A DNA stretch of 62,412 nucleotides, filler included, from Stramenopiles sp. TOSAG23-6 (lineage: Eukaryota): assembly GCA_900128565.1 (NCBI GenBank). It is 18 parts of 18 records of this genome, joined end to end, with 100 filler letters (N's around TTAATTAATTAA, not from the genome) between each part and the next. Parts side by side here need not be neighbours in the genome. Positions count along the whole stretch, not along the records: positions 6,967 to 10,348 come from LT637526.1; positions 10,449 to 13,829 come from LT637527.1; positions 13,930 to 17,310 come from LT637528.1; positions 17,411 to 20,786 come from LT637529.1; positions 20,887 to 24,261 come from LT637530.1; positions 24,362 to 27,734 come from LT637531.1; positions 27,835 to 31,207 come from LT637532.1; positions 31,308 to 34,679 come from LT637533.1; 10 more parts are not named here. The stretch is one strand, 5' to 3'. Within the stretch, counting starts at the first letter, position 1; every line of letters begins with the position of its first letter. The notes beneath the pieces are model-generated. The model was not told the DNA's origin. It worked only from the letters and a program-made list of their open reading frames with translations, and made no database searches. Both the position numbers and the translations under genes were made by a program. Shown in pieces: positions 7,041 to 46,494 of the stretch.

Positions 7041-8720
7041 ATACCTTGTCTTGGTCAATTAGTTGTTAAAGCTTGTCAACGATACAACCGTAGAAATGGT
7101 AGCTTTCCAGCAACAATTGTCCTTTATCGTCCATCGAATGGTGCAGGACAACAAGAGAGAACGTTGCTCGACGACTTGAAAGTTATTAACATGGCATTTA
7201 AGGATATGGGTGTTTGTTTTATTTCAAATTTTTTCAAATTTTTTTTCAAATTTTTTTTCAAATTTTTTTTCAAATTTTTTNNNNNNNNNNNNNNNNNNNN
7301 NNNNNNNNNNNNNNNNNNNNNNNNNNNNNNNNNNNNNNNNNNNNNNNNAAATTTTTTCAAATTTTTTTTCAAATTTTTTTTCAAATTTTTTTTCAAATTT
7401 TTTTCAAATTTTTTTTTTCGTACATTTTTTCGTAGCTAACTTTTATATATATTTATACATAAATATAATCTACTGTACATGTCCCTGAAGTTCAATTCGA
7501 TGAACATGGTGGAATTAATGCACAATTGAGTACGTGTTAATAATTTAAATGTATTCAAATTTTTTAATAATTTTTTTATTAATTTTTTTTCCATATTTTG
7601 AACTCAAAAAAAAAAAAAAAAATTCAAATATTTTCTTATAAATACATGCAGCGCTCCTCGTCTTGCTCTTATTGAATATTGTACTAATCCAAAGGAACGT
7701 TTTGGAGAACAACGATTGAAGTCGGATGATAAGGTGTATAATGTCCCTGCTGGAACAGTCATTTGTGATCCTGAATTTCAACGTAAAGGTCATGGTTCAT
7801 CTTTTTTTACAGTTTCACATGTACGTTTTTTTTTTTGAGTTCAAAATATGGAAAAAAAATNNNNNNNNNNNNNNNNNNNNNNNNNNNNNNNNNNNNNNNN
7901 NNNNNNNNNNNNNNNNNNNNNNNNNNNNNNNNNNNNNNNNNNNNNNNNNNNNNTTTTTTCATACGAAATTTCGTACCTAACCAAATACATTTTTTTTTTA
8001 AATATTTTTATACAACAAAGGATTCAACATTTGCAGCAAAACCTGTCGCTTTTGATTTAGTGACAGAAAATGTAAAACACGATGACGTCACTTTTTCATT
8101 ATTTTCAAAATTGAAAGATACGCCAAAAGTGGATGAGGATGGTGAACCTGTCGGAATGCATTTCTTTCCATTTGGATCTGGATCATCAAATGATGAATGT
8201 ATGTTTTTTTTTTTTTTTTTTGACGAATAAATTGTCTTATCTTTACTTCAATTGGTCTGGCGCCGTTCGCGTCCCAGCACCATGTACGATAACCCTAACC
8301 CTAATATATACCCCTACAACCCTAACCCTAACGCTATTCCTACTACTATATATATATATATATATATATTTTTTTTATAGTAAATTTTGTACCTAAACTA
8401 AAAAGATTTTTTTTTTTGAAATATTTTTTAAATTTTATGTAAATTGGCACAAAAAGCAGCAGAAGCAATTACAGCTGTGTATGGAAGTACAAACACCGAC
8501 GAAATTCGAATTGCAGAAGCCATTGATCGCGCTGAACATGTTTGTTCCCAATATGAATTTCTGATTTTTTTTTTTTAACTTTTTTAAATTTTTTCTTAAT
8601 TTTTTAATTTTTTTTTTCGAAATATTTTTACAATTAAATTTTTTTATACTAAACGAAAAAAATCGAAAAAAAAAAATGAAATATTTTCACAAAAGATAGA
8701 CACATATGTTTTACTTGTAA
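7041..8720 (+). CDS. Argonaute, Piwi-clade, C-terminal PIWI domain (5'-partial, multi-exon)
   Basis: Exons 7041-7211, 7481-7529, 7648-7820, 8021-8198, about 8220-8283, 8439-8539 and 8700-8720 give PxTIVLYR, NVPAGTVI, FFTVSH, LTNKLSYLYFNWSGAVRVPAPCKLA and terminal MFYL-stop, all PIWI hallmarks. One junction (8199-8220) looks collapsed in the assembly. Confidence 0.85.
7224..7410 (+). repeat. Tandem ~12-nt repeat (CAAATTTTTTTT) inside a Piwi intron
   Basis: Repeated caaattttttt(t) units on both sides of an N gap. Confidence 0.8.
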
Positions 8721-9161
8721 ATAAGCAATAAAAATACTATTGAAACAATGTAAAACCCCCTAAAAATCAATCAATGTACTACTGATTGTTTGCTCATAAA
8801 AAAAAATTGTTTTCAGTTTTTGTTTAATCGATAATAAAAAAAAAAAAAACACGAAACACAAAAAAAGGAATTTCAAAATTTTATTTTTGCGCTTTTTTTG
8901 AAATTTTGTTTTGTTTTCTTGTGTCTAAAAAATGTGTTTTGTGATTTCGTGTATACAAAATAAACAATAATAACAATAATAACAATGATAACAATAATAA
9001 CAAATATTTTTTTTTATTTTTGTTGCAATACATTTGAAAATATATTGTCACATTTCACGCACTACAAAAGATTTCGTGTCCAAGTTTGTTAGTACTATTT
9101 TGTACTTTTTATTTGGAAAAATTGTTTTCCGTGTTTTTGTACACAAGAAACCCTAACCCTA

Positions 9162-9571
9162 TCAACAACAGCCACAGCAACGCTTCGCAATTTTTGTTTC
9201 AGTAGAGCTGTCATGCCAAGTATTGTGAAAAAATATTTCAAAAAAAAAAAACTTAAAATCGTTAGGTACAAAATTATCTACGAAAAAAAAAAAAAAAAAA
9301 TCATTCAAAAAAAAACGTACAGAAAATTCCACAACAACCCATTTGTTCTGATACACTCAGCTGAATACTATTAATATTGATACTTCGGTCACAAACATGA
9401 ATTGTTGTAAAATACGTGAGAAAGTCGCTATAACGCATCCAAAAGCGACCATCATTGGAACCACCACGTTTATATCCTAACTGTCTCCTTATCTTAGGAT
9501 GCTTCTGTTTTAGTGAGGAAACAAAAATTCAAAAAAAAATCGTTAGGTACAAAATTAACTATGAAAAATTT

Positions 9572-9602
<31 letters not shown>

Positions 9603-9818
9603 GTTTAGGTACAAAATTAACTATGAAAAAAAAAACTGAAATTTCAAACATACCTCCCAGCGTTCAACATCCTTATCACTCCAATCTCCTTTCCATTCAA
9701 AAGATCCCCAAGGATTTCTTAGTTGTACCAGTTTTGTTAATCCATCAAGATCATATAAATCATATTCTGTACAAAAATATATATTTTTTTTTTTCGTGTA
9801 AAAAATATTTTTTGTTAG

Positions 9819-9859
<41 letters not shown>

Positions 9860-10253
9860 CTTTGTCCGAAGGCTATCTTTGAAAATAAAATAAAAAACTT
9901 TGAAAAGAGTACAACATACACGACATTGAAGTAAAGAATAGGCATGCCCAGCAACAAGACCAACTTTTTCATCACGTTCCTCTTTCCCTGATGATATTCC
10001 ACATGTACTGTAAAAATGTATTTAAAAAAAAAAAAAAAAAAATTTAAAAAAAAAAAAAATTTTCAAAAAAAAAAAAAAATGTAAAATACATGAAAAAAAC
10101 GTACATCCAATGACAGCGCGTTTATTTAGATAATTCTGTAATGTTTGAAATAACAAATCATCAGGCACTTTATCTTTGCATGTCCGAAACAAAATTTTAA
10201 ATTTCGATTTATGTGGAAGAGTTTCTGTTGAATTTGTTTGACCGCCTGTAAAC
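9162..10253 (-). CDS. Calpain-family cysteine protease, catalytic domain C-terminal half (5'-partial, multi-exon)
   Basis: Spliced exons give FTGG, VIGCGI, GLVAGHAYSLL (catalytic His), LRNPWG (catalytic Asn), WKGDWSD and DGRFWM, ending CCGCC-stop. Introns at 10104-10003, 9919-about 9768, 9653-9505 and 9320-9218. Confidence 0.9.
10003..10104 (-). other. Non-canonical intron GT-AT (calpain)
   Basis: GGA T|GTACGT...ACAGTACAT|GT GGA restores VIGCGI; the AG 5 nt upstream is out of frame. Confidence 0.82.
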
Positions 10254-10501
10254 ATGTATTTTGGAAAAATATTTCAAAAAAAATATATATATCGTTAGGT
10301 ACAAAATTTCGTACGAAAAAAAAATCATACAAAAAAAAAATAAAACATNNNNNNNNNNNNNNNNNNNNNNNNNNNNNNNNNNNNNNNNNNNNTTAATTAA
10401 TTAANNNNNNNNNNNNNNNNNNNNNNNNNNNNNNNNNNNNNNNNNNNNTACGAAATTTTGTACCTAATGATTTTTTTTTCAAATATTTTTCCAAAATACA
10501 T

Positions 10502-11664
10502 ACACAAAAATCAGATCACGAAAAAAGTCATGAATGTTCTCCTGTCTTTCTCCAATTTCTTGATTGTACGTGGCAATTGATGCGTCAATACCCAAATTGC
10601 TTTCAGTTTAACTCCGACTTACTTGTATTTCTAGGTCATCAGTTGTATACTTGCTCTTTTGGTACATTTTTAGGGAATTGTGAGCGACAAGTGTGTTTTA
10701 TTTTTTTTCAATTTCGATTTTTTTTCGTACGAGATTTTGTACCTAACAAATTTTACAAAAAAAATATTTTTTCACAATACAACGTCGTGATATGAAAATT
10801 GAATCGAAAACACCATGCTTGTGGAAGTATGTTACTGGGCCTCAAAAAAGAGATTCATTTTTAAGTCCATACTATCAATGTAAAAGTAAAATTTCTGACA
10901 ACTGTGATAATTCAAATGATGTAAAGAGTTTTAGTGGCGTTTCTAGTTCACCTACTGGATCTACTGTATTGCTACCATATATTTCAACTGTAGTTCGAAA
11001 TTATTCCGTCTGGAGTGATTACTTTTATCGTTGGTGTTCTGTTCCTTCCTATTCATCTCAGATTCCGCCAAGGTCTCGACCTGAAGGTACGTTGACTGAG
11101 TTTGTTAGTGGAGAAAAGAAAATGGAGGTGGGAGTGAAGTGTGCATATGCTTCTGCAGCGGCGGTTATCGTTGGTAGCTCAGTTAATGATTTAAGTGAGC
11201 GTGAAAGATTTGTTGAATCTGCATTGACCATCGCACAAGACAAAATTAAAGAACTTGAAGCTGAATTAATAAGAATAAAATCTCTTGACAAGGTTGTGAA
11301 GGATGCAGAAACAGATAAAATACCAAGTGAAAATTCTTTATTAAACGACACTGGAAATATATCTGTGAATCTCTCTGTAGGGGATTTAGATTTTGAGTCA
11401 GATTTTGACAAGGATCCCAGACCAGATCTCGGACCAAATCTTGCGGATTTAGGCATTTCGGAAAATATTGATGATCATTGTAATAATTCTCAATCAAATT
11501 TCAACGACATGATTAATGAAGTTGACGCTCTTTTGGTACAAGATAATGCTCCTGAAAATCCAGAAACCAAAAATATTTTGGATACAGAAAAAAATCAAAA
11601 AAATCAAAATTCTAATGAAGGTATGGAAAATTCTGAAAATGTATTGACGGAAGTATATGAATGA
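10502..11664 (+). CDS. Myotubularin-related phosphatase, C-terminal part (5'-partial; exons 10502-10690, 10783-11664)
   Basis: SPVFLQFLDCTWQLMRQYPNCFQFN and FGTFLGNCERQR are myotubularin motifs, followed by WSDYFYRW and a coiled coil. Confidence 0.88.
10691..10782 (+). other. Non-canonical intron GT-AA (myotubularin)
   Basis: CAA|GTGTGT...TACCTAAC...AATATTTTTTCACAATACAA|CGT restores NCERQ|R in frame. Confidence 0.8.
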
Positions 11665-12892: not shown

Positions 12893-13776
12893 ATGACATC
12901 AAACCCCAAAAGTGCATTAGACGGTAGGTCTAAAATAGGGCATCTTAATTCCGGTGAGGCAAACGAAAATTATTGCACAACAAATACGAAAAACGGTAGA
13001 TCTCAAAAACGAGATGTTCAGAGACACAATTCGAAAAGTAAGCACAATACACAGAGTTGGTCCTCCCAGCGGGGAAATTCTGAAGGAAACAAGTCTAATA
13101 ATCAATATAAGAAGGACAAATATCGTAATAATCCCCAAAGTGCAAATCATGTGAAAAAAGAAGAGGTGCAACAGCTTATTGAAGGTAACTATTCCAACAA
13201 CTCCAACAAGAAACAAAGAACGCGTGGTACTCATATTCGACCAATACGGAATAGCGGCGAAGCTCTTTGTTTACTTGAGGATGTCATTTCTGATCCGAGG
13301 GTAAGACAAAGGTTTAATTTGTCAGACTTTGATTCCAATTCTAAGGAATCTTATAGAAACCCCACGTATGACGAGCAAGTAAGGACATGCGATATACTGC
13401 TTCATCGACTAAGGGTTTTCAAAGAAAGAATTAGAAATCCAAGTTCTCTATTAGTAGACACTTGTAACAAAATAAACCAGAAATACGGATTAAATAAACG
13501 AGAAAGAGGAAACGAGCAAAACAAAAACGTGAGAAATAATTCTCGAAACGTCCAAAAGCATCAGCACAGAAACCCTAACCCTAAACTACAAAAGAAGACA
13601 TCATCAGCATATGGTGGATGGTGTACTGTATCAAGTCAAAAACGCGAGTCAAATCAAGCAGATGTTTGGTCGAATAAAGAAGCTATCTCGGAAGACGCAG
13701 AAGAAACAAAAAGAAATGAGGAAAGAAAAAGAAATGAAGATGCTGCAAAGGAAAATAGAGAAATGGCAGAAGCGAT
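12893..13776 (+). CDS. Hypothetical N/K/Q-rich protein (3'-partial)
   Basis: Long ORF from ATG ending at an AT|GTATGT donor, followed by the start of the intron hairpin motif. Divergently oriented to the 12586 gene. Confidence 0.6.
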
Positions 13777-14278
13777 GTATGTTTTATTTTTTTTTCAATT
13801 TCGAATTTATTTTTCATACGAAATTTTGTNNNNNNNNNNNNNNNNNNNNNNNNNNNNNNNNNNNNNNNNNNNNTTAATTAATTAANNNNNNNNNNNNNNN
13901 NNNNNNNNNNNNNNNNNNNNNNNNNNNNNAATAGTTCACAATCAACGTCAATAGTGAAGATTCCTTTTATGACTGAAACAAAAACAACTACTACTTTTAC
14001 AAAGAAAAGAAAGAAAAGGAAATATAAAAAGAACCATAAATCCAGTGATATCGAATAACTCTATTTGGAAATTTAAAATTGATTCAATAATAAAAAACAA
14101 AAAAAAAACGAAAAGGAATGTACAAATTTTTAATTTTTTTATATCTCCGATTCGGTGATTTTTCAAAACAAAGCTGTAGCTATACGTTACTTTTGAAAGA
14201 GCGTTTTTGTAGGAAGAACATGTATCTTAACCGTCGATTAGCTTGAATTCATTCTACTTTACTATTCTTTCAAAGATA

Positions 14279-31407: not shown

Positions 31408-31422
31408 TTTTGCAATACCTAC

Positions 31423-34400
31423 ACATTCCCTTAATAGCTCACACGCATCTGCAGATAAACAAGAAGGAGGTATCGGAGGCGCGACTTTTTCCGATGCAAT
31501 ATGAAACATTGCAGTGATTGGATTTTCAAATTTCTTTTCATGCCATGGATGTATTTTGGAAAAATATTTCAAATTATTTTTTGTTAGGTACAAACTTTTT
31601 ATAAAAAAAACATTCATACAAAAAAAAAATAAAAAAACATACATTCTTTCCCGTTGCCATTTCAATTACAGTGCATGTATTGTGAAAAAAAAAATGTATG
31701 AAAAAAAAACGTTAGGTATGAAATATATTACAAAAACAAAAATTGCAAAAAAAAATTGGAAAGAAAAAAACCTACATGTAATGTAGAAAAANTATTTTTT
31801 TTTNTAAAATTCGTTAGGTACAAAATTTCGTACGAAAAGCAAATTTAAAATTGAAAAAAAAAGAAACCTACATCCAACACTCCAAATATCAGCTTTAGGC
31901 CAATCAACATGCACGTCAATTTCATGATTAAGATGTTTAAATACTTTCATTCCAGCAGTTGGAGATCTTGGACCTGGATTTATTTGCTGTTTTAAAGAGG
32001 CCGAACCCATCCGAATGACCTCTGGAGCCATCCATAATGGTGTCCCTAAAGGAAATTCAATTTGACCTGGTAAACCAAAACTTTCATTTTTACCAATTTC
32101 GAATTTATTTTTGAAACCAAAATTTTCATTTTGATTTTTTGATGTATTTTTTACATGACTGATAGAATGATCATTTTTGTAATGTATTGAAGAATTTTTA
32201 CGGAAACTTGAATATTTCCTTCGTTTTGGTGTCAATTCTTTTAAAGATTTACTTGCCTGTAGTATACGAAGAATATTAATTTTTTTTTGTTAGGTATGAA
32301 ATTTTTACACGAAAAAAATAAAAAAAAATAAATTTAAATTTAAATTTAAATTTAAAAAAAAAAATGGAATACAAAACATACACCAAAATCAGCAAGCTTT
32401 ATGATACCTCTATTACTAATTAATATATTAGCACCTTTTACATCTCGATGTGCTATACCATGATTATGTAAATATTGCAAACCTTTAATGATTTGTCTTG
32501 TGTAGCATTTTAATGCCTTTTCTGGCAAACCTGTAGGAAATTTTTTCAGTAAATCATGAACAGAGCCTCCTGGTAAATATTCCATAAAAATACGCAACGC
32601 CCATCCACAGGTAAGAGAACCATGAGTCATTGGGCTTGGCGTCCGAGTCCAATCTAAACCCTTTCGTGGAATTGATGTNTTGNGAANATATATATATANA
32701 NTTTNTNTTGGTAAATAAAACTCGTTTGGTACATGATGTACTACAAAAATAAACAATACGTTGAAAAAATATATATATAGGAGAATACACCTACATGGAC
32801 TTCTAATACGTTGTAATTGTGACGGCATTACTCCTCCTGGTAAAGGTTGTCGCTCTGTAGCAAAATAGTGCACAATATTCTCATTGGATAAAGCACGCAT
32901 TAATGAAATTTCATCTTGAAGAGTTACCAATTCGCCAGGTCTTGCTAAAGCGGCATCTAGGGATGTGACTTCTATCGGAGGTAACTCAACTTCTTTCATA
33001 GCCATAACTTGTCCATTATCGAGATTTGTTACAACAAAGACTCTACCATATTGACCTTGACCAATACATTTGCCGCGTCTCCAACGGAAAGGTGCTGGTT
33101 GAACCCATGACTTTTCATGTGGACTCAAATGCCGTTTCGGTGGTGTGATGACGCGAAAATTATTATCTTCTTTCAGAATTTCTGTACTCATTAAACCTTC
33201 TGTTGAATCAATATCTTCACTATCATCAGACACGACAACTTTACGAAAAAAATTTGAAATTAATTTACGTTTCATTGTCTTTCTTCTCCATCGAGGTGTT
33301 GTCCATAAAACTGATAATTCTTTAAGATCATCTTGAGTAGATAAATCTATTTGTTCAACAACTGCACTTTGTACTAAAAATTTATCTGGTTTAGCATTTA
33401 TGTCTTCTCTGTCTAGTAATTGTCTAACTTCTTGTTTTCGTATAATAAATTGAACATCTGTCCATTTACCTGGTTTTATAAGACCCATGTATTTTGGAAA
33501 AATATTTTGAAAAAAAAAAATTGAAAAATTTGTTAGGTACAAAATTTCGTACGAAAAAAAAATTTGAATTTCAAATTTAAAAAAAAAAAAANATACATTG
33601 CTGGTCTAACTAAATATCGATCTGGTTGTGTTGTTTTTATCTTAAATGCCACGGATTCTAAGGGTAGTGAATTTTCTAATAAAAGCTGACCAAGTGCACT
33701 TTGTGCTGTGTCTAAAGCAAAATCTATTTCATCTCTTGGTGTGCATCGTAATCTGTACTTTGGGAAAATATTTTAAAAAAAAAAGTGTTTGTTTAAGCAA
33801 AATNTTTTTTTTTTTTAATATATATATATAGCAAAACAATCAAAAATAAATGATGAAATAAAAACATACGCTTTTCTATGACGCATATCGATGACAGCAC
33901 TATTTGTTTTCTTTGAACGAATTCCATGGCGATTATTTTCACGTAATTTTTTATTACTTTGTGTACATATTTTNTGAAAAAATATTTTTTTTTTTTTTTN
34001 TAAAATTTGTTATTTTTGTTAGGTACGAAATTTCGTATGAAAAAAAAATTGAAAAAAATTGGAAAAAATTGATAAAAAATTGAAAAAAAAAACATACCAC
34101 TTTGTTTTTGAATAGTCATTTGTAAAGAAGCAACAGAACTGTTACCAGGAAATGAAGGTAATGACTTACCAGGTGAAAAAATATTTGTGTTTTTCGTGTA
34201 TGGAGATCCAATAGGCGTACCATAAGGAGTTAAAGGTTGAATTTTAAATTTATTTGGCATTGGACAATTTTGTGAAAAATATTTCATTTTTTTTAGGGTT
34301 AGTGGTTTAGTGGGTTAGGGTTAGGATTTGGAAAAAAAAAATGAAATTCATTAGGGTTAGGGTTAACACATACGATCCTCTTGGCGTACTATAAGGACTA

Positions 34401-34679
34401 ATACTATCATTCATATTTTCAATTTGAATGTGACGAATTTTCTTACGACTTTTCATATCTAATAAAGACACATTTTCTAGTACTTTTTTGTTAGGGTTAG
34501 GGCTAGGGTTAGGGTCTGTTGTATTCGGTGTAGGATTTGTTGTATTTTTTATTCTTGAAAGAAGTTTTTCAATTCCTTTACGAAACTTTTTTTTTGTTTT
34601 TGTATTTTTAAGATTCATTACATTATCAACATTATCAACATTATCAACATTATCAACATTATCAACATTTTTATCATCA
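31423..34679 (-). CDS. MSP(VAP)-domain STE11/MEKK-like Ser/Thr kinase (partial, multi-exon), copy 1
   Basis: MSP signature VAFKIKTTQPDRYLVRPAMGLIKPG; kinase motifs GQGQYGRV, MAMKEV, HRDVKGAN, DFGAS, GTPLWMAPE and DIWSVGCTVIEMATG after splicing. Confidence 0.9.
31675..31871 (-). other. Two abutting GT-AT intron units (31871-31776, 31775-31675) with no exon between them
   Basis: GGA T|GTAGGT..TACCTAAC..TTACAT|GTAGGT..TACCTAAC..AATACAT|GC ACT restores DIWSVGCTVIEM. Confidence 0.82.
33487..33596 (-). other. Non-canonical intron GT-AT within the MSP domain
   Basis: GCA AT|GTATGT...AAAATACAT|G GGT restores YLVRPAMGLI (compare VAP YCVRPNSGII). Confidence 0.85.
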
Positions 34680-34786
34680 NNNNNNNNNNNNNNNNNNNNN
34701 NNNNNNNNNNNNNNNNNNNNNNNTTAATTAATTAANNNNNNNNNNNNNNNNNNNNNNNNNNNNNNNNNNNNNNNNNNNNCAATATT

Positions 34787-34819
<33 letters not shown>

Positions 34820-34824
34820 GGGGA

Positions 34825-34879
<55 letters not shown>

Positions 34880-34894
34880 TTTTGCAATACCTAC

Positions 34895-37800
34895 ACATTC
34901 CCTTAATAGCTCACACGCATCTGCAGATAAACAAGAAGGAGGTATCGGAGGCGCGACTTTTTCCGATGCAATATGAAACATTGCAGTGATTGGATTTTCA
35001 AATTTCTTTTCATGCCATGGATGTATTTTGGAAAAATATTTCAAATTATTTTTTGTTAGGTACAAACTTTTTATAAAAAAAACATTCATACAAAAAAAAA
35101 ATAAAAAAACATACATTCTTTCCCGTTGCCATTTCAATTACAGTGCATGTATTGTGAAAAAAAAAATGTATGAAAAAAAAACGTTAGGTATGAAATATAT
35201 TACAAAAACAAAAATTGCAAAAAAAAATTGGAAAGAAAAAAACCTACATGTAATGTAGAAAAAATATTTTTTTTTNTAAAATTCGTTAGGTACAAAATTT
35301 CGTACGAAAAGCAAATTTAAAATTGAAAAAAAAAGAAACCTACATCCAACACTCCAAATATCAGCTTTAGGCCAATCAACATGCACGTCAATTTCATGAT
35401 TAAGATGTTTAAATACTTTCATTCCAGCAGTTGGAGATCTTGGACCTGGATTTATTTGCTGTTTTAAAGAGGCCGAACCCATCCGAATGACCTCTGGAGC
35501 CATCCATAATGGTGTCCCTAAAGGAAATTCAATTTGACCTGGTAAACCAAAACTTTCATTTTTACCAATTTCGAATTTATTTTTGAAACCAAAATTTTCA
35601 TTTTGATTTTTTGATGTATTTTTTACATGACTGATAGAATGATCATTTTTGTAATGTATTGAAGAATTTTTACGGAAACTTGAATATTTCCTTCGTTTTG
35701 GTGTCAATTCTTTTAAAGATTTACTTGCCTGTAGTATACGAAGAATATTAATTTTTTTTTGTTAGGTATGAAATTTTTACACGAAAAAAATAAAAAAAAA
35801 TAAATTTAAATTTAAATTTAAATTTAAAAAAAAAAATGGAATACAAAACATACACCAAAATCAGCAAGCTTTATGATACCTCTATTACTAATTAATATAT
35901 TAGCACCTTTTACATCTCGATGTGCTATACCATGATTATGTAAATATTGCAAACCTTTAATGATTTGTCTTGTGTAGCATTTTAATGCCTTTTCTGGCAA
36001 ACCTGTAGGAAATTTTTTCAGTAAATCATGAACAGAGCCTCCTGGTAAATATTCCATAAAAATACGCAACGCCCATCCACAGGTAAGAGAACCATGAGTC
36101 ATTGGGCTTGGCGTCCGAGTCCAATCTAAACCCTTTCGTGGAATTGATGTNTTGNGAANATATATATATANANTTTNTNTTGGTAAATAAAACTCGTTTG
36201 GTACATGATGTACTACAAAAATAAACAATACGTTGAAAAAATATATATATAGGAGAATACACCTACATGGACTTCTAATACGTTGTAATTGTGACGGCAT
36301 TACTCCTCCTGGTAAAGGTTGTCGCTCTGTAGCAAAATAGTGCACAATATTCTCATTGGATAAAGCACGCATTAATGAAATTTCATCTTGAAGAGTTACC
36401 AATTCGCCAGGTCTTGCTAAAGCGGCATCTAGGGATGTGACTTCTATCGGAGGTAACTCAACTTCTTTCATAGCCATAACTTGTCCATTATCGAGATTTG
36501 TTACAACAAAGACTCTACCATATTGACCTTGACCAATACATTTGCCGCGTCTCCAACGGAAAGGTGCTGGTTGAACCCATGACTTTTCATGTGGACTCAA
36601 ATGCCGTTTCGGTGGTGTGATGACGCGAAAATTATTATCTTCTTTCAGAATTTCTGTACTCATTAAACCTTCTGTTGAATCAATATCTTCACTATCATCA
36701 GACACGACAACTTTACGAAAAAAATTTGAAATTAATTTACGTTTCATTGTCTTTCTTCTCCATCGAGGTGTTGTCCATAAAACTGATAATTCTTTAAGAT
36801 CATCTTGAGTAGATAAATCTATTTGTTCAACAACTGCACTTTGTACTAAAAATTTATCTGGTTTAGCATTTATGTCTTCTCTGTCTAGTAATTGTCTAAC
36901 TTCTTGTTTTCGTATAATAAATTGAACATCTGTCCATTTACCTGGTTTTATAAGACCCATGTATTTTGGAAAAATATTTTGAAAAAAAAAAATTGAAAAA
37001 TTTGTTAGGTACAAAATTTCGTACGAAAAAAAAATTTGAATTTCAAATTTAAAAAAAAAAAAACATACATTGCTGGTCTAACTAAATATCGATCTGGTTG
37101 TGTTGTTTTTATCTTAAATGCCACGGATTCTAAGGGTAGTGAATTTTCTAATAAAAGCTGACCAAGTGCACTTTGTGCTGTGTCTAAAGCAAAATCTATT
37201 TCATCTCTTGGTGTGCATCGTAATCTGTACTTTGGGAAAATATTTTAAAAAAAAAAGTGTTTGTTTAAGCAAAATGTTTTTTTTTTTTAATATATATATA
37301 TAGCAAAACAATCAAAAATAAATGATGAAATAAAAACATACGCTTTTCTATGACGCATATCGATGACAGCACTATTTGTTTTCTTTGAACGAATTCCATG
37401 GCGATTATTTTCACGTAATTTTTTATTACTTTGTGTACATATTTTGTGAAAAAATATTTTTTTTTTTTTTTNTAAAATTTGTTATTTTTGTTAGGTACGA
37501 AATTTCGTATGAAAAAAAAATTGAAAAAAATTGGAAAAAATTGATAAAAAATTGAAAAAAAAAACATACCACTTTGTTTTTGAATAGTCATTTGTAAAGA
37601 AGCAACAGAACTGTTACCAGGAAATGAAGGTAATGACTTACCAGGTGAAAAAATATTTGTGTTTTTCGTGTATGGAGATCCAATAGGCGTACCATAAGGA
37701 GTTAAAGGTTGAATTTTAAATTTATTTGGCATTGGACAATTTTGTGAAAAATATTTCATTTTTTTTAGGGTTAGTGGTTTAGTGGGTTAGGGTTAGGATT

Positions 37801-38151
37801 TGGAAAAAAAAAATGAAATTCATTAGGGTTAGGGTTAACACATACGATCCTCTTGGCGTACTATAAGGACTAATACTATCATTCATATTTTCAATTTGAA
37901 TGTGACGAATTTTCTTACGACTTTTCATATCTAATAAAGACACATTTTCTAGTACTTTTTTGTTAGGGTTAGGGCTAGGGTTAGGGTCTGTTGTATTCGG
38001 TGTAGGATTTGTTGTATTTTTTATTCTTGAAAGAAGTTTTTCAATTCCTTTACGAAACTTTTTTTTTGTTTTTGTATTTTTAAGATTCATTACATTATCA
38101 ACATTATCAACATTATCAACATTATCAACATTATCAACATTTTTATCATCA
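34895..38151 (-). CDS. MSP-domain MEKK-like kinase, redundant contig copy 2
   Basis: Same sequence as copy 1 at offset 3472, apart from resolved Ns. Confidence 0.85.
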
Positions 38152-38258
38152 NNNNNNNNNNNNNNNNNNNNNNNNNNNNNNNNNNNNNNNNNNNNTTAAT
38201 TAATTAANNNNNNNNNNNNNNNNNNNNNNNNNNNNNNNNNNNNNNNNNNNNCAATATT

Positions 38259-38291
<33 letters not shown>

Positions 38292-38296
38292 GGGGA

Positions 38297-38351
<55 letters not shown>

Positions 38352-38366
38352 TTTTGCAATACCTAC

Positions 38367-41300
38367 ACATTCCCTTAATAGCTCACACGCATCTGCAGAT
38401 AAACAAGAAGGAGGTATCGGAGGCGCGACTTTTTCCGATGCAATATGAAACATTGCAGTGATTGGATTTTCAAATTTCTTTTCATGCCATGGATGTATTT
38501 TGGAAAAATATTTCAAATTATTTTTTGTTAGGTACAAACTTTTTATAAAAAAAACATTCATACAAAAAAAAAATAAAAAAACATACATTCTTTCCCGTTG
38601 CCATTTCAATTACAGTGCATGTATTGTGAAAAAAAAAATGTATGAAAAAAAAACGTTAGGTATGAAATATATTACAAAAACAAAAATTGCAAAAAAAAAT
38701 TGGAAAGAAAAAAACCTACATGTAATGTAGAAAAANTATTTTTTTTTNTAAAATTCGTTAGGTACAAAATTTCGTACGAAAAGCAAATTTAAAATTGAAA
38801 AAAAAAGAAACCTACATCCAACACTCCAAATATCAGCTTTAGGCCAATCAACATGCACGTCAATTTCATGATTAAGATGTTTAAATACTTTCATTCCAGC
38901 AGTTGGAGATCTTGGACCTGGATTTATTTGCTGTTTTAAAGAGGCCGAACCCATCCGAATGACCTCTGGAGCCATCCATAATGGTGTCCCTAAAGGAAAT
39001 TCAATTTGACCTGGTAAACCAAAACTTTCATTTTTACCAATTTCGAATTTATTTTTGAAACCAAAATTTTCATTTTGATTTTTTGATGTATTTTTTACAT
39101 GACTGATAGAATGATCATTTTTGTAATGTATTGAAGAATTTTTACGGAAACTTGAATATTTCCTTCGTTTTGGTGTCAATTCTTTTAAAGATTTACTTGC
39201 CTGTAGTATACGAAGAATATTAATTTTTTTTTGTTAGGTATGAAATTTTTACACGAAAAAAATAAAAAAAAATAAATTTAAATTTAAATTTAAATTTAAA
39301 AAAAAAAATGGAATACAAAACATACACCAAAATCAGCAAGCTTTATGATACCTCTATTACTAATTAATATATTAGCACCTTTTACATCTCGATGTGCTAT
39401 ACCATGATTATGTAAATATTGCAAACCTTTAATGATTTGTCTTGTGTAGCATTTTAATGCCTTTTCTGGCAAACCTGTAGGAAATTTTTTCAGTAAATCA
39501 TGAACAGAGCCTCCTGGTAAATATTCCATAAAAATACGCAACGCCCATCCACAGGTAAGAGAACCATGAGTCATTGGGCTTGGCGTCCGAGTCCAATCTA
39601 AACCCTTTCGTGGAATTGATGTNTTGNGAANATATATATATANANTTTNTNTTGGTAAATAAAACTCGTTTGGTACATGATGTACTACAAAAATAAACAA
39701 TACGTTGAAAAAATATATATATAGGAGAATACACCTACATGGACTTCTAATACGTTGTAATTGTGACGGCATTACTCCTCCTGGTAAAGGTTGTCGCTCT
39801 GTAGCAAAATAGTGCACAATATTCTCATTGGATAAAGCACGCATTAATGAAATTTCATCTTGAAGAGTTACCAATTCGCCAGGTCTTGCTAAAGCGGCAT
39901 CTAGGGATGTGACTTCTATCGGAGGTAACTCAACTTCTTTCATAGCCATAACTTGTCCATTATCGAGATTTGTTACAACAAAGACTCTACCATATTGACC
40001 TTGACCAATACATTTGCCGCGTCTCCAACGGAAAGGTGCTGGTTGAACCCATGACTTTTCATGTGGACTCAAATGCCGTTTCGGTGGTGTGATGACGCGA
40101 AAATTATTATCTTCTTTCAGAATTTCTGTACTCATTAAACCTTCTGTTGAATCAATATCTTCACTATCATCAGACACGACAACTTTACGAAAAAAATTTG
40201 AAATTAATTTACGTTTCATTGTCTTTCTTCTCCATCGAGGTGTTGTCCATAAAACTGATAATTCTTTAAGATCATCTTGAGTAGATAAATCTATTTGTTC
40301 AACAACTGCACTTTGTACTAAAAATTTATCTGGTTTAGCATTTATGTCTTCTCTGTCTAGTAATTGTCTAACTTCTTGTTTTCGTATAATAAATTGAACA
40401 TCTGTCCATTTACCTGGTTTTATAAGACCCATGTATTTTGGAAAAATATTTTGAAAAAAAAAAATTGAAAAATTTGTTAGGTACAAAATTTCGTACGAAA
40501 AAAAAATTTGAATTTCAAATTTAAAAAAAAAAAAANATACATTGCTGGTCTAACTAAATATCGATCTGGTTGTGTTGTTTTTATCTTAAATGCCACGGAT
40601 TCTAAGGGTAGTGAATTTTCTAATAAAAGCTGACCAAGTGCACTTTGTGCTGTGTCTAAAGCAAAATCTATTTCATCTCTTGGTGTGCATCGTAATCTGT
40701 ACTTTGGGAAAATATTTTAAAAAAAAAAGTGTTTGTTTAAGCAAAATNTTTTTTTTTTTTAATATATATATATAGCAAAACAATCAAAAATAAATGATGA
40801 AATAAAAACATACGCTTTTCTATGACGCATATCGATGACAGCACTATTTGTTTTCTTTGAACGAATTCCATGGCGATTATTTTCACGTAATTTTTTATTA
40901 CTTTGTGTACATATTTTNTGAAAAAATATTTTTTTTTTTTTTTNTAAAATTTGTTATTTTTGTTAGGTACGAAATTTCGTATGAAAAAAAAATTGAAAAA
41001 AATTGGAAAAAATTGATAAAAAATTGAAAAAAAAAACATACCACTTTGTTTTTGAATAGTCATTTGTAAAGAAGCAACAGAACTGTTACCAGGAAATGAA
41101 GGTAATGACTTACCAGGTGAAAAAATATTTGTGTTTTTCGTGTATGGAGATCCAATAGGCGTACCATAAGGAGTTAAAGGTTGAATTTTAAATTTATTTG
41201 GCATTGGACAATTTTGTGAAAAATATTTCATTTTTTTTAGGGTTAGTGGTTTAGTGGGTTAGGGTTAGGATTTGGAAAAAAAAAATGAAATTCATTAGGG

Positions 41301-41623
41301 TTAGGGTTAACACATACGATCCTCTTGGCGTACTATAAGGACTAATACTATCATTCATATTTTCAATTTGAATGTGACGAATTTTCTTACGACTTTTCAT
41401 ATCTAATAAAGACACATTTTCTAGTACTTTTTTGTTAGGGTTAGGGCTAGGGTTAGGGTCTGTTGTATTCGGTGTAGGATTTGTTGTATTTTTTATTCTT
41501 GAAAGAAGTTTTTCAATTCCTTTACGAAACTTTTTTTTTGTTTTTGTATTTTTAAGATTCATTACATTATCAACATTATCAACATTATCAACATTATCAA
41601 CATTATCAACATTTTTATCATCA
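38367..41623 (-). CDS. MSP-domain MEKK-like kinase, redundant contig copy 3
   Basis: Same sequence as copy 1 at offset 6944. Confidence 0.85.
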
Positions 41624-41730
41624 NNNNNNNNNNNNNNNNNNNNNNNNNNNNNNNNNNNNNNNNNNNNTTAATTAATTAANNNNNNNNNNNNNNNNNNNNN
41701 NNNNNNNNNNNNNNNNNNNNNNNCAATATT

Positions 41731-41763
<33 letters not shown>

Positions 41764-41768
41764 GGGGA

Positions 41769-41823
<55 letters not shown>

Positions 41824-41838
41824 TTTTGCAATACCTAC

Positions 41839-44800
41839 ACATTCCCTTAATAGCTCACACGCATCTGCAGATAAACAAGAAGGAGGTATCGGAGGCGCGA
41901 CTTTTTCCGATGCAATATGAAACATTGCAGTGATTGGATTTTCAAATTTCTTTTCATGCCATGGATGTATTTTGGAAAAATATTTCAAATTATTTTTTGT
42001 TAGGTACAAACTTTTTATAAAAAAAACATTCATACAAAAAAAAAATAAAAAAACATACATTCTTTCCCGTTGCCATTTCAATTACAGTGCATGTATTGTG
42101 AAAAAAAAAATGTATGAAAAAAAAACGTTAGGTATGAAATATATTACAAAAACAAAAATTGCAAAAAAAAATTGGAAAGAAAAAAACCTACATGTAATGT
42201 AGAAAAANTATTTTTTTTTNTAAAATTCGTTAGGTACAAAATTTCGTACGAAAAGCAAATTTAAAATTGAAAAAAAAAGAAACCTACATCCAACACTCCA
42301 AATATCAGCTTTAGGCCAATCAACATGCACGTCAATTTCATGATTAAGATGTTTAAATACTTTCATTCCAGCAGTTGGAGATCTTGGACCTGGATTTATT
42401 TGCTGTTTTAAAGAGGCCGAACCCATCCGAATGACCTCTGGAGCCATCCATAATGGTGTCCCTAAAGGAAATTCAATTTGACCTGGTAAACCAAAACTTT
42501 CATTTTTACCAATTTCGAATTTATTTTTGAAACCAAAATTTTCATTTTGATTTTTTGATGTATTTTTTACATGACTGATAGAATGATCATTTTTGTAATG
42601 TATTGAAGAATTTTTACGGAAACTTGAATATTTCCTTCGTTTTGGTGTCAATTCTTTTAAAGATTTACTTGCCTGTAGTATACGAAGAATATTAATTTTT
42701 TTTTGTTAGGTATGAAATTTTTACACGAAAAAAATAAAAAAAAATAAATTTAAATTTAAATTTAAATTTAAAAAAAAAAATGGAATACAAAACATACACC
42801 AAAATCAGCAAGCTTTATGATACCTCTATTACTAATTAATATATTAGCACCTTTTACATCTCGATGTGCTATACCATGATTATGTAAATATTGCAAACCT
42901 TTAATGATTTGTCTTGTGTAGCATTTTAATGCCTTTTCTGGCAAACCTGTAGGAAATTTTTTCAGTAAATCATGAACAGAGCCTCCTGGTAAATATTCCA
43001 TAAAAATACGCAACGCCCATCCACAGGTAAGAGAACCATGAGTCATTGGGCTTGGCGTCCGAGTCCAATCTAAACCCTTTCGTGGAATTGATGTNTTGNG
43101 AANATATATATATANANTTTNTNTTGGTAAATAAAACTCGTTTGGTACATGATGTACTACAAAAATAAACAATACGTTGAAAAAATATATATATAGGAGA
43201 ATACACCTACATGGACTTCTAATACGTTGTAATTGTGACGGCATTACTCCTCCTGGTAAAGGTTGTCGCTCTGTAGCAAAATAGTGCACAATATTCTCAT
43301 TGGATAAAGCACGCATTAATGAAATTTCATCTTGAAGAGTTACCAATTCGCCAGGTCTTGCTAAAGCGGCATCTAGGGATGTGACTTCTATCGGAGGTAA
43401 CTCAACTTCTTTCATAGCCATAACTTGTCCATTATCGAGATTTGTTACAACAAAGACTCTACCATATTGACCTTGACCAATACATTTGCCGCGTCTCCAA
43501 CGGAAAGGTGCTGGTTGAACCCATGACTTTTCATGTGGACTCAAATGCCGTTTCGGTGGTGTGATGACGCGAAAATTATTATCTTCTTTCAGAATTTCTG
43601 TACTCATTAAACCTTCTGTTGAATCAATATCTTCACTATCATCAGACACGACAACTTTACGAAAAAAATTTGAAATTAATTTACGTTTCATTGTCTTTCT
43701 TCTCCATCGAGGTGTTGTCCATAAAACTGATAATTCTTTAAGATCATCTTGAGTAGATAAATCTATTTGTTCAACAACTGCACTTTGTACTAAAAATTTA
43801 TCTGGTTTAGCATTTATGTCTTCTCTGTCTAGTAATTGTCTAACTTCTTGTTTTCGTATAATAAATTGAACATCTGTCCATTTACCTGGTTTTATAAGAC
43901 CCATGTATTTTGGAAAAATATTTTGAAAAAAAAAAATTGAAAAATTTGTTAGGTACAAAATTTCGTACGAAAAAAAAATTTGAATTTCAAATTTAAAAAA
44001 AAAAAAANATACATTGCTGGTCTAACTAAATATCGATCTGGTTGTGTTGTTTTTATCTTAAATGCCACGGATTCTAAGGGTAGTGAATTTTCTAATAAAA
44101 GCTGACCAAGTGCACTTTGTGCTGTGTCTAAAGCAAAATCTATTTCATCTCTTGGTGTGCATCGTAATCTGTACTTTGGGAAAATATTTTAAAAAAAAAA
44201 GTGTTTGTTTAAGCAAAATNTTTTTTTTTTTTAATATATATATATAGCAAAACAATCAAAAATAAATGATGAAATAAAAACATACGCTTTTCTATGACGC
44301 ATATCGATGACAGCACTATTTGTTTTCTTTGAACGAATTCCATGGCGATTATTTTCACGTAATTTTTTATTACTTTGTGTACATATTTTNTGAAAAAATA
44401 TTTTTTTTTTTTTTTNTAAAATTTGTTATTTTTGTTAGGTACGAAATTTCGTATGAAAAAAAAATTGAAAAAAATTGGAAAAAATTGATAAAAAATTGAA
44501 AAAAAAAACATACCACTTTGTTTTTGAATAGTCATTTGTAAAGAAGCAACAGAACTGTTACCAGGAAATGAAGGTAATGACTTACCAGGTGAAAAAATAT
44601 TTGTGTTTTTCGTGTATGGAGATCCAATAGGCGTACCATAAGGAGTTAAAGGTTGAATTTTAAATTTATTTGGCATTGGACAATTTTGTGAAAAATATTT
44701 CATTTTTTTTAGGGTTAGTGGTTTAGTGGGTTAGGGTTAGGATTTGGAAAAAAAAAATGAAATTCATTAGGGTTAGGGTTAACACATACGATCCTCTTGG

Positions 44801-45095
44801 CGTACTATAAGGACTAATACTATCATTCATATTTTCAATTTGAATGTGACGAATTTTCTTACGACTTTTCATATCTAATAAAGACACATTTTCTAGTACT
44901 TTTTTGTTAGGGTTAGGGCTAGGGTTAGGGTCTGTTGTATTCGGTGTAGGATTTGTTGTATTTTTTATTCTTGAAAGAAGTTTTTCAATTCCTTTACGAA
45001 ACTTTTTTTTTGTTTTTGTATTTTTAAGATTCATTACATTATCAACATTATCAACATTATCAACATTATCAACATTATCAACATTTTTATCATCA
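41839..45095 (-). CDS. MSP-domain MEKK-like kinase, redundant contig copy 4
   Basis: Same sequence as copy 1 at offset 10416. Confidence 0.85.
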
Positions 45096-45195
45096 NNNNN
45101 NNNNNNNNNNNNNNNNNNNNNNNNNNNNNNNNNNNNNNNTTAATTAATTAANNNNNNNNNNNNNNNNNNNNNNNNNNNNNNNNNNNNNNNNNNNN

Positions 45196-46494
45196 ATGGT
45201 CGTTAATGTCTTTCCAAATATTGTNAAAAAATATTTTTTTTTTTTGGTTAAAAAAAACAAAAAAAACGTTAGGTACAACATTTGGTACGAAAAAATGTAG
45301 GTAAAACATTCAATTTTGAAAATGTACAAGTCCCATCTCATCGGCTAAGATGGCACCTTGCCCCATATATTCTTTTACACCGCTCAGACATTCCCAAAGA
45401 AATTGAACATATTGTAAAAAAATATTTCAAAAATTAAAATTTTGTTAGGTACAAAATTTTATACGAAAAAAAAAATATTTCAAAAAAAAAATTAAAATTT
45501 TCTTAGGTACAAAATTTCATACGAAAAAAACAATTCGAAATTGAAAAGAAAACATACACACCTTCTATTTGATGTTGTTGTAAAATGTTTGATAGCCGAT
45601 ATTCAAGAATTGCACATTTTCCATTTTTCTCAAATAATTTACCTTTTGAGGGCGTGTAATTTGCTTTTGTACAATGAATGCTTCCTAGTCCTGGATTTCT
45701 ATTNATATTGTTTTTTCTTTTGTGTGGTGTTGTGACACTGGTGTCTGTAGTTGCGAGAGTGTGAGAAAGTACAAAAAAATCGTTAGGTACAAAGTTTCGT
45801 ACGAAAAATAAAAACATAAATTGAAAAAAAAAATAAATTGCGAAATTCATGATGAAAGTGTACTTTTGTTAGGAAATGGATTTTGAAACTTGCGATTAAA
45901 ATTAGATGTGTTTTTAATTTTCCCCACATTATTGTTATGAGAAGTATTCACATAATTTCCAATAAAAAACTTGCCACTGTTGAACTCTTCATCGGGTACT
46001 TGTCGAACGACTTCGGTTTCCCAATTTCCAACACCTAGAGTTTCACCTTCTTTCATTAGTTGAAATTTGAAACGAGTGACGGCCACACTTTTCCCATTCA
46101 TATTCCGCAGTTCAGCACGATTCTTTGAATTCAAAATAAGAACACCGTCCATGTATGTCTTATGCTTCTTTTTAGAATATTTACAGTACAATACCTCATA
46201 GTATTTCTTGACAACTGGAGCACTAGTAATCTTGTTTATTGTACCATTTGATTTAGTCATACTCGGCGGAACAAATTTGCTTCGCTTTCTACTCACACGT
46301 TTTAATATTGTCTTGGNTTCAGAAANAATTGTAGTGTGAGTGGTTTTCGTGTTGGTACTTCTATTTTCTTTCGAGCAAGCTGTAGAAGATACATTTTTAG
46401 NTGCTTGTACAACATTTGGATTTGAAANTCTTGGTGCCTGAAATGTACTTCGTGATCTACCAAAGCGGCGTCTTTTTAGACCAGATGGATTCAT
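45196..46494 (-). CDS. RAD54B: RAD54B-like SNF2 DNA translocase, N-terminal part (exons 46494-45864, 45744-45558, 45406-45328, 45215-45196)
   Basis: N-terminal KKKHKTYMDGVLIL motif; splicing restores LQQHQIEGVQFLWEC and SNF2 motif I GAILADEMGLGKTL. Exon phases 1/2/0 are mutually consistent. Confidence 0.8.
45216..45327 (-). other. Non-canonical intron GT-TT inside the SNF2 Walker A motif
   Basis: CTT|GTACAT...TACCTAAC...ACAATATTT|GGA AAG restores DEMGL|GKT. Confidence 0.88.
45407..45557 (-). other. Non-canonical intron GT-GT (equivalently GT-AT if slid 2 nt)
   Basis: GGT GT|GTATGT...ACAATATGT|T CAA restores HQIEGVQFLW. Confidence 0.8.

Follow-up and report, generated by a model that had tools for sequence, protein, structure and literature searches.

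A repeated family of short, mostly GT...AT introns with an imperfect two-nucleotide border repeat in Stramenopiles sp. TOSAG23-6

Introduction

The introns that we annotated in 62,412 nucleotides of Stramenopiles sp. TOSAG23-6 (GenBank assembly GCA_900128565.1; the whole stretch, at its full length, is called the window here) are copies of one repeated element family, found in unrelated genes (calpain-like, PI3K-like, kinase and others). What is excised is the GTA...TAC body of the element plus two nucleotides, and these two nucleotides are a copy of the upstream exon's last two bases in more cases than chance allows. The family is best read as Introner-like and of spliceosomal type, with a GT...AT code and a minority of GT...AG members. 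An earlier annotation made from the sequence (the original prediction) had described introns between 8284 and 45557 as elements flanked by a 2-nucleotide target-site duplication (TSD), with any TSD able to serve as the acceptor. That span is non-contiguous DNA, crossing 10 spacers and four identical contig copies (31308-45095).

The window is AT-rich eukaryotic DNA (GC 27-39% per 4 kb) and consists of 18 contigs in falling length order, from 3384 down to 3360 bases, separated about every 3.47 kb by N44-TTAATTAATTAA-N44 spacers (3385-3484, 6867-6966 and onward to 58953-59052). Contigs 31308-34679, 34780-38151, 38252-41623 and 41724-45095 are identical (identity 1.0, ignoring N), as are 45196-48561 and 48662-52027 (ignoring N), and 55593-58952 and 59053-62412 are 96% alike. 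Any window-wide count therefore needs de-duplication, and all intron counts given below refer to the 13 contigs (about 44 kb) of unique sequence. Contig 20887-24261 is present in two small DNA runs, and a marine metagenome as well as three metatranscriptomes from seawater contain parts of it; the organism is therefore marine. A search of the ESM Atlas returned only generic U-box/Sel1 clusters of marine eukaryotes.

One repeated family of introns

The 13-mer TTAGGTACAAAAT occurs 48 times in the window with at most one mismatch, against 0.29 occurrences expected. A profile made from the last 78 nucleotides of 22 introns gave 38 matches at E<=0.01, which are spread over 11 of the 13 unique contigs; 16 of the 38 are not in the training set, and four of the five introns ending in AG were recovered. 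Pairwise identity over the 78-nucleotide ends averages 67% (range 45-88%, 231 pairs). Written in the sense of the gene, the unit is GTAYGTTTT ... TTTCGTAYGAAATTTTGTACCTAAC ... T-run ... GAAATATTTTT[CT][CA]A[AC]AATAC-AT. The introns are 92-269 nucleotides long (median 120), with a GC content of 16%, and all 38 profile matches lie between open reading frames (ORFs) and on the strand of the flanking ones, as judged by our own comparison with the ORF list.

Doubled cores or head-to-tail units were found in five introns (31675-31871, 9505-9653 and 45407-45557 on the minus strand, 26461-26658 and 23350-23516 on the plus strand). Both units of 31675-31871 begin with the rare variant GTAGG, and this doubling points to a local tandem duplication, not to two separate insertions. 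The tandem units and doubled cores show that DNA-level duplication has taken place within introns.

The core of most copies starts with a perfect 12-nucleotide palindrome, TTTCGTACGAAA, located just upstream of the TTTTGTACCTAAC box (e.g., 10307-10318 and 33545-33556, both on the minus strand). GTAC recurs within the family: the 5' site (GTACG) has it, and so do the core and the region close to the 3' end. Searches for the element elsewhere gave 19 loci for a two-part pattern in a metagenome contig collection, none with the element (chance matches, with GC up to 0.43), and no match for a 21-nucleotide core pattern in the viral contig and genome contig collections. Two element parts in the window (20887-20945 and 23599-23711) have summed word depths of 3,400-8,500 in the seawater metatranscriptomes X3 and X4, in which hundreds of short contigs run from the element into differing flanks. 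The family is very abundant in these RNA libraries, be it as unspliced RNA, as excised intron or as DNA carry-over.

Placement of the intron borders

Direct evidence for the borders comes from an RNA-library contig (run X5, record 22; 223 nucleotides, 0 mismatches) that covers 23242-23347, 23515-23597 and 23700-23733. Two introns are spliced out of it, neither of which can be drawn as GT...AG and both of which can be drawn as GT...AT. At 23599-23700 the RNA keeps the exon TT and loses the intron AT; drawing the borders as AT...AC (XY...AC) was rejected, since the contig retains the exon TT at 23599. Most joints reported for the RNA contigs link the two element copies at 209xx and 236xx, and we read them as other copies of the family, not as splicing; stretches lacking RNA cover were given no weight as evidence.

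The borders of the 29 non-AG introns were drawn from the G of GT to two nucleotides beyond the TAC-like end. So drawn, they join the reading frames correctly in 18 of the 19 cases in which the frame could be determined (ten could not be), with a chance expectation of 1/3 for each. In the calpain-like gene, three consecutive exons correspond to Peptidase_C2 203-223, 232-258 and 266-296, colinear across two introns. An in-frame AG within 12 nucleotides of the drawn end exists in only 6 of the 29 introns, and one of these six is refuted by the RNA contig. A protein search with a PI3K-like exon for spliced products that run across mismatched junctions gave no candidate within the range of 50-161 amino acids searched. 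Except for the two introns with RNA support and two with Pfam colinearity, borders were inferred from frame and consensus. Our own annotation places all four introns that the original prediction had named (10691-10782, 15588-15495, 45557-45407 and 45327-45216) identically. Excluded from the counts as uncertain were 8199-8226, introns starting at 8540 and at 24383 with no assigned end, and an intron near 52466-52347 with two possible 5' sites.

Splice signals and AG-ended members

The 5' profile (33 junctions) is that of a conventional donor site, with G1 in 32/33, T2 in 32/33, A3 in 28/33, a pyrimidine at position 4 in 31/33 (C in 15, T in 16) and G5 in 28/33, followed by four T positions, the first of which (+6) is T in 30/33. 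The row for 24152 in this profile was out of register by two nucleotides, the correct position being 24154. On the exon side of the junction, A is found at -2 in 18/33 and T at -1 in 24/33. The 3' profile (34 junctions) has a pyrimidine at -3 in 33/34 (C in 23, T in 10), A at -2 in 29/34 and T at -1 in 32/34, and the first exon base after the intron is G in 18/34 and a purine in 22/34. Of 28 introns, 23 have a CTAA[C/G/A] box that looks like a branch site, at a distance of 31-53 nucleotides from the 3' end. AT is the majority ending, found in 22 of the 29 non-AG introns, that is, in 22 of the 34 curated introns once the five ending in AG are included.

Three of these five AG introns are supported by frame and two are probable. 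Four of the five end in TAC-AG or TAT-AG in the same register as the rest, and four of the five carry the family core. AG and non-AG introns are thus one family differing in the last base, not separate classes.

Introns of the U12 type have the 5' site [A/G]TATCCTT and a branch box, TCCTTAAC, about 10-26 nucleotides from the 3' end. We rejected this class for the family on both counts, given the prevalence of G at +5 and T at +6 and a box, TACCTAAC, at 31-53 nucleotides from the end.

As to the inverted consensus ends of the original prediction, GTAYGTTTT and [CT][CA]A[AC]AATAC-AT were recovered as described, but strict complementarity is confined to GTA/TAC plus A-T pairs: the three GTA/TAC positions pair in 29, 27 and 21 of the 29 introns, and beyond them there is partial, A-T-rich pairing. 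Six introns that were folded did no better than shuffled sequences (z from -0.04 to -1.44), their ends pairing in one of six minimum-energy structures, and no covariation was found between positions +4 and -6 of the intron ends.

Repeats at the intron borders

The last two bases of the upstream exon equal the last two bases of the intron in 16 of the 29 non-AG introns (AT in 12, TT in two, AA in one and GT in one). The original prediction gave 17 of 28 (13 AT/AT), with the same four non-AT cases; among AG introns, one of five matches here (the AG/AG intron 9653-9505) and one of seven matched there. Shuffling of 3' partners, carried out on the 13 unique contigs, gave 9.8 matches against the 16 observed (p=3e-4). 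Non-AT matches number 4, against 0.69 in the shuffles (p=0.002). A run on 28 introns agreed with this, and among the 21 for which frame, RNA or Pfam gives support it found 13 matches (p=7e-4). In a test free of register (28 introns), a direct repeat of at least 2 nucleotides was found in 22, with 16.7 expected (p=0.002), and one of at least 3 nucleotides in 14, with 9.2 expected (p=0.005), and it is the exon flank of the 5' junction that shows the excess.

AT stands upstream of 12 of the 29 introns (41%), compared with 9.4% before exonic GT (n=976), and every one of these 12 introns also ends in AT. Among the seven introns with other endings, four are identical to the upstream exon and three match it at one base, so that 11 of 14 positions agree (hand tally), and these seven carry most of the direct-repeat signal. 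The AA/AA, TT/TT and GT/GT matches are direct repeats, not complements. Six of these seven introns score as family members, against five of the ten AT-ended introns whose upstream dinucleotide differs. This weak trend is in line with a later shift of the intronic copy to AT (see the model below), but it comes from a hand count and is partly circular owing to the training set.

Two independent preferences, one for an exonic AT|GT context and the other for an AT acceptor, with the four non-AT matches due to chance or to misdrawn borders, seem to us an unlikely source of these repeats. AT/AT pairs do make up 12 of the 16 matches, and T at -1 and A at -2 upstream, as well as AT at the 3' end, are each strongly favoured alone; in addition, 45557-45407 can be redrawn as GTGTATG...AT, and another non-AT match has only about 20 nucleotides of exon. 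Shuffling, however, preserves both preferences and yet falls short of the matches observed, in total and for the non-AT class, and the register-free test is likewise significant. That all introns with upstream AT end in AT also argues against independence, as do the AA/AA and TT/TT (15588-15495) introns, both firmly supported by frame. An AT preference acting independently on both sides, the explanation by which the original prediction said it would fall, does not account for all of the excess.

A model for insertion and splicing

Considering these results together, we favour, with moderate confidence, an Introner-like family of short introns that are removed by the spliceosome, that spread by insertion with a 2-nucleotide duplication and that have multiplied through protein-coding genes. 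Each copy has its own signals in a single orientation: GTAYGTTTT, the TTTCGTAYGAAATTTTGTACCTAAC box with its CTAAC, a T-rich stretch, the GAAATATTTTT box and the YAC end. After YAC come two further bases of the intron, as a rule AT, in some copies AG and rarely others. The RNA is removed from the G of GTA to two nucleotides beyond TAC, most likely by a U2-type spliceosome whose second step may take YAU besides YAG. Spliceosomal removal with a relaxed last base is proposed because of the GTAYGT start, the CTAAC box, the T-rich tract, the pyrimidine at -3, the A at -2, the AG members in register and the occurrence on one strand. The statistics on the 29 introns suggest that spread would be by DNA-level insertion with a 2-nucleotide duplication, AT sites being favoured, after which the intronic copy would be kept at, or driven to, AT as an acceptor while the exonic copy would be free to drift. 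Of this model, the family itself, its borders and the surplus of repeats have been shown; spliceosomal removal, insertion of DNA and the later move to AT are proposals.

Removal could instead be nonspliceosomal, as for the nonconventional introns of euglenozoans, through a helix formed by the intron ends with a 2-nucleotide cut offset. The register of +1/-3 pairing is indeed that of the Euglena code N3-CDG...CH'G-N5-6|R as given in PMC12501133, and short direct repeats over which the border can slide are described there as typical (here 22 of 28 introns have at least 2 nucleotides). A purine is the first exon base in most introns, and marine diplonemids reportedly have an abundance of introns other than GT-AG (PMC12621601, PMC6221363). 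Nevertheless, the family has a conserved 5' GTAYGT of spliceosomal type and conserved terminal bases (G1, T2, A at -2 and T at -1), and there is no CAG/CTG pair at +4..+6/-8..-6, where the consensus is YGT and MAA, so that only the 2-nucleotide offset is common to both. The six introns folding like shuffles, with their ends pairing in only one structure, and the absence of +4/-6 covariation tell against such a helix, and normal AG members share the register. Copies occur in a single orientation despite near-symmetric termini, which points to asymmetric internal signals (branch box, T tract). We regard this alternative as quite improbable.

Several observations weigh against the favoured model. 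Ten of the 22 AT-ended introns follow unrelated, background-like dinucleotides (AG, GT, GA, GT, TT, GG, AC, TT, TG and TG), four of them differing from AT at both bases; a simple TSD fails to predict these ends, and therefore an added assumption is needed, namely that the intronic copy was selected for AT or converted to it. Since AT is its own reverse complement, the 12 AT/AT pairs cannot separate a direct repeat from longer inverted ends, and the TSD signal comes down to few introns, that is, four non-AT matches, two of them firmly supported by frame (10691-10782, 15588-15495), one weakly (45557-45407) and one placed by consensus only (45327-45216). The strict inverted repeat is 3-4 bp, GTA/TAC only, and pairing of the ends is found at 4.8 of 9 positions in the register with a 2-nucleotide overhang, compared with 6.2 of 9 when the ends are set flush and G-U pairs are counted. 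The 24 ORFs or exons scanned (from the roughly 44 kb of unique sequence) contained no transposase domain, no empty site was seen in the window, and neither was an antisense copy or one clearly outside an intron position, in a window that holds little non-genic sequence. The RNA evidence for splicing is one assembled contig from one metatranscriptome, and other RNA-library contigs are unspliced (X3 across 22194-22638; X4 running 12 nucleotides into intron 22704). Rfam at the gathering threshold found nothing in the window, small nuclear RNAs of the putative splicing machinery included. Finally, the intron table was curated by eye by someone who knew the hypothesis, because pairing of open frames and AT-rich segmentation were too noisy as automatic intron callers.

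The original prediction of an element with a 2-nucleotide TSD therefore survives in part. One repeated family whose last two nucleotides repeat the exon end above chance is there, and the ten AT-ended mismatches are what does not fit. Its idea that any TSD can serve as the acceptor was too strong, for the introns have a 3' consensus of their own that is independent of the upstream dinucleotide in ten cases, a mismatch proven by RNA at 23599-23700. Nor is the acceptor simply co-opted from the TSD, as it had proposed: AT is used in 22 of 29 introns, in ten of them unlike the exon end, and a 5' site as well as a 3' YAC-AT consensus belong to the element itself. An origin of the family from a DNA transposon (a MITE, or miniature inverted-repeat transposable element) is unproven.

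The 22 AT ends and the orientation of the copies are explained equally well if nothing is duplicated, and a fixed GTA...TAC-AT unit spreads as RNA (through reverse splicing into a transcript, then reverse transcription and recombination), preferring sites after AT. The upstream AT would then be a recognition preference and the 3' AT part of the intron, whatever precedes it. All 38 copies being sense and none having been seen away from intron positions is exactly what insertion at the RNA level predicts, and the very short inverted ends and the window without a transposase among the ORFs scanned agree with it too. It leaves unexplained, however, why the introns with other ends than AT resemble the upstream exon there, with repeats that reach 3-4 nucleotides (ACAA, CTT, TGT). 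Double units (31675-31871) and internal core duplications suggest DNA-level events, and sense-only copies are also expected from selection, since the branch box and the T tract are present in just one of the two orientations. We therefore consider spread at the RNA level rather unlikely, and keep to insertion with a 2-nucleotide duplication.

A bolder version of the spliceosomal model can be put forward only tentatively. In this lineage, the major spliceosome may have moved its preferred acceptor from YAG to YAU, with the 3' cut set by the TAC+2 of the invasive intron end and not by a dinucleotide. A mobile element duplicating two nucleotides would thus make almost any exon site, and best of all AT, precisely removable, its acceptor being later polished to AT. 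If true, this shift would be a natural case of a change in the splice code driven by introners. In canonical splicing, the 3' AG contacts the 5' G and the branch A. Should the family prove to be genome-wide, it would offer a clean system for studying what sets the 3' cut, whether a G(+1)-U(-1) contact can stand in for the usual G-G contact, and whether acceptors are optimised after insertion.

Comparison with known systems

The Introners of Micromonas and Aureococcus, as described in PMC11282704, resemble this family in being many related short introns in unrelated genes and in sense orientation, with short inverted ends, a short direct repeat at the borders, their own 5' site and internal signals. 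They are canonical (GT/GC-AG), co-opting AG or GT from a TSD of at least 3 nucleotides, whereas here the acceptor is AT, often no copy of the exon end, and the repeat is 2 nucleotides long and imperfect (16/29). Closer in some respects are the MITE-derived introns of Fritillaria borealis, for which the same source describes mass gain, terminal inverted repeats and TSDs, non-GT-AG borders and ...TAC at the 3' junction (PMC11282704), and for which an adapted U2 spliceosome was proposed (Henriet et al. 2019, as cited in PMC11282704). Their main classes are given as AG-AC and AG-AT, the intron being preceded by TAC in the exon (PMC11282704). The family described here has a canonical 5' GTAYGT, departs from AG only in the last base and resides in an AT-rich, protist-like genome.

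The introners of Amoebophrya are also repeated non-canonical introns with direct repeats overlapping their borders and, in the account of PMC7789003, with no transposase to explain them. That source describes direct repeats of 3-5 nucleotides, hairpin-forming inverted repeats of 8-20 nucleotides, highly variable borders and apparently no U1 (PMC7789003), in contrast to the uniform GT..AT borders, the 3-4 bp inverted ends and the lack of a significant predicted fold found here. Nonconventional introns of euglenids and non-canonical introns of hemistasiid and marine diplonemids share with the family non-AG ends, slidable repeat borders, the 2-nucleotide offset and a suspected MITE origin, according to descriptions in PMC12501133, PMC6221363 and PMC12621601. 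The same descriptions give them no conserved terminal dinucleotides and an extensive pairing of the ends, G/C-rich in hemistasiids; the ends of the family are conserved, AT-rich and barely pair. Canonical diplonemids have the 5' site (G)/GTATG in these sources (PMC12501133, PMC6221363, PMC12621601), and a high density of non-GT-AG introns has been reported by others for single-cell genomes of marine diplonemids.

Animal GT-AT introns, both U2- and U12-type, have the same terminal dinucleotides, and both spliceosomes are described as processing them (PMC1557818). They are put at a handful per genome in that description (PMC1557818), whereas they account for most of the curated introns here (22 of 34), and neither the 5' site nor the branch distance fits the U12-type ones. 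None of these systems, compared by description, combines a canonical 5' site with a branch box, a mostly AT acceptor and an imperfect 2-nucleotide repeat. A literature search found no paper on a GT...AT introner family, supplements (possibly with intron logos) lying outside the search.

The family bears on two open questions, the origin of new introns and the degree to which the rules of the spliceosome can bend to accommodate them. The known cases (Introners, Fritillaria, Amoebophrya, euglenozoans) either retain GT-AG or lose recognisable signals altogether. This family is intermediate, with a 5' site of textbook form, a branch-like box, an AT acceptor, AG members in register and the statistical trace of a 2-nucleotide duplication. 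Gene finders that assume AG will mis-model most genes in such organisms.

Feature coordinates and minor observations

Table 1. Curated introns, intron parts cut by contig ends and duplicate contigs in the window (positions along the whole stretch)
Position	Strand	Feature	Upstream exon end	Support and remarks
1225-1422	-	Intron GT..AT, without core box	AG (mismatch)	Frame consistent
2583-2679	-	Family intron GT..GG	GT (half match)	Frame consistent; profile match
7212-7480	+	Intron GT..AT	GT	Best frames agree, not clearly determined
7530-7647	+	Intron GT..AT	GA	Frame consistent
7821-8011	+	Family intron GT..AT; N run inside	AT	Frame consistent; profile match; alternative in-frame AT acceptor at 7990
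8284-8438	+	Family intron GT..AT; CCCTAA repeats inside	AT	Profile match; 5-nt direct repeat ATGTA; 3' end picked by reading
9218-9320	-	Family intron GT..(TT), before last exon	CT	Sole frame-inconsistent case; profile match; doubtful 3' end, may stop at TAC (9220)
9505-9653	-	Family member GT..AG; two core boxes	AG	Frame consistent; profile matches; Pfam colinearity
9762-9919	-	Intron GT..AT	GT (mismatch)	Both exons colinear with Peptidase_C2 203-223 and 232-258, zero residues missing
10003-10104	-	Intron GT..AT, calpain-like gene	AT	Flanking exon is Peptidase_C2 203-223
10691-10782	+	Family intron GT..AA	AA	Frame consistent, 80 + 293 open codons; direct repeat ACAA
15495-15588	-	Family intron GT..TT	TT	Frame consistent; direct repeat CTT
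21080-21192	+	Family intron GT..AT	AT	Curated table, frame test; in-frame CAG 3 nt beyond
21288-21403	+	Family intron GT..AT	AT	Frame consistent
21721-21849	+	Family intron GT..AT	TT	Best frames agree
22279-22429	+	Family intron GT..AT	AT	Frame consistent; also unspliced in RNA-library contig (run X3)
22704-22833	+	Intron GT..AT	GG (mismatch)	Frame consistent
23112-23231	+	Family intron GT..AT	AC	Curated table, frame test; in-frame TAG 3 nt beyond
23350-23516	+	Family intron GT..AT; two core boxes	AT	RNA contig X5 record 22 joins 23347 to 23515; cut slidable over ATG
23599-23700	+	Family intron GT..AT	TT (retained in RNA)	X5 contig joins 23597 to 23700; cut slidable over TG only
23868-23976	+	Family intron GT..AT	TG (mismatch)	Frame consistent
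24729-24930	+	Intron GT..AT	AT	Frame consistent
26461-26658	+	Family intron GT..AT; two core boxes	AT	Frame consistent, 385 + 358 open codons; profile match
30900-31010	+	Family member ending TAT-AG	GC	Frame-supported; profile match
31549-31642	-	Family intron GT..AT	AT	Best frames agree
31675-31871	-	Two head-to-tail family units (GTAGG starts) removed as one GT..AT intron	AT	Frame consistent; two profile matches
32257-32381	-	Family member ending TAC-AG	GT	Frame-supported; profile match
33487-33596	-	Family intron GT..AT	AT	Frame consistent
33753-33869	-	Probable GT..AG intron ending TAC-AG	GC	Frame ambiguous
33967-34097	-	Family intron GT..AT	TG	Profile match; direct repeat GTA
34265-34373	-	Intron GT..TG; CCCTAA repeats inside	TC (half match)	Frame consistent
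45216-45327	-	Family intron GT..TT	TT	Consensus only; contig ends about 20 nt past 3' border
45407-45557	-	Family intron GT..GT; two core boxes	GT	Weak frame support (best frames agree); profile match; redrawable as GTGTATG...AT
45745-45863	-	Probable family member ending TAC-AG; N nearby	AA	Profile match
1-78	+	Family intron, 3' part cut by contig end		Profile/consensus
6818-6866	-	Cut 3' part
6967-7040	+	Cut 3' part
10254-10348	-	Cut 3' part
10449-10501	+	Cut 3' part
20887-20945	+	Cut 3' part
13777-13829	+	Family intron, 5' part cut by contig end		Consensus
24154-24261	+	Cut 5' part
27835-27965	-	Cut 5' part
31142-31207	+	Cut 5' part
52128-52213	-	Cut 5' part
34780-45095		Duplicate contigs, three further exact copies of 31308-34679		Introns repeat at +3472, +6944 and +10416; not independent
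48662-52027		Duplicate contig, copy of 45196-48561		Introns not independent

Of the six cut 3' parts listed in Table 1, five end in ..TAC/TAA/TCC-AT. At 8199-8226 on the plus strand there is a 28-nucleotide segment composed of GTATG, 18 T and GACGA, and the frame is kept only if it is skipped; it may be an intron outside the family, ending in GA and of unusually small size, or else an error in homopolymer length. The surrounding gene may be PIWI-like, to judge from motifs in its exons (...E|YKLSYLYFNWSGAVRVPAP), and Pfam recognised none of the three exons so read.

The ORF at 55541-58951 (minus strand), with a near-copy in 59053-62412, runs for over 1,100 amino acids without interruption and has no family intron, unlike its intron-dense neighbour genes. 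Pfam gave nothing above threshold for it, only a weak match to Ephrin_rec_like (E=7e-4).

Interstitial telomere-like repeats, (CCCTAA)2-4, occur 28 times in the window, against 0.01 expected, mostly on the sense strand (e.g., 8293-8330, 9151-9161, 13573-13583, 20161-20171, 22045-22067, 22553-22587, 22743-22753, 22932-42, 34352-34514 and 48308-48324). They sit within introns and within ORFs, where they read as N-P-N-P-like runs, and the CCCTAA repeat shares CCTAAC with the branch-like box of the introns.

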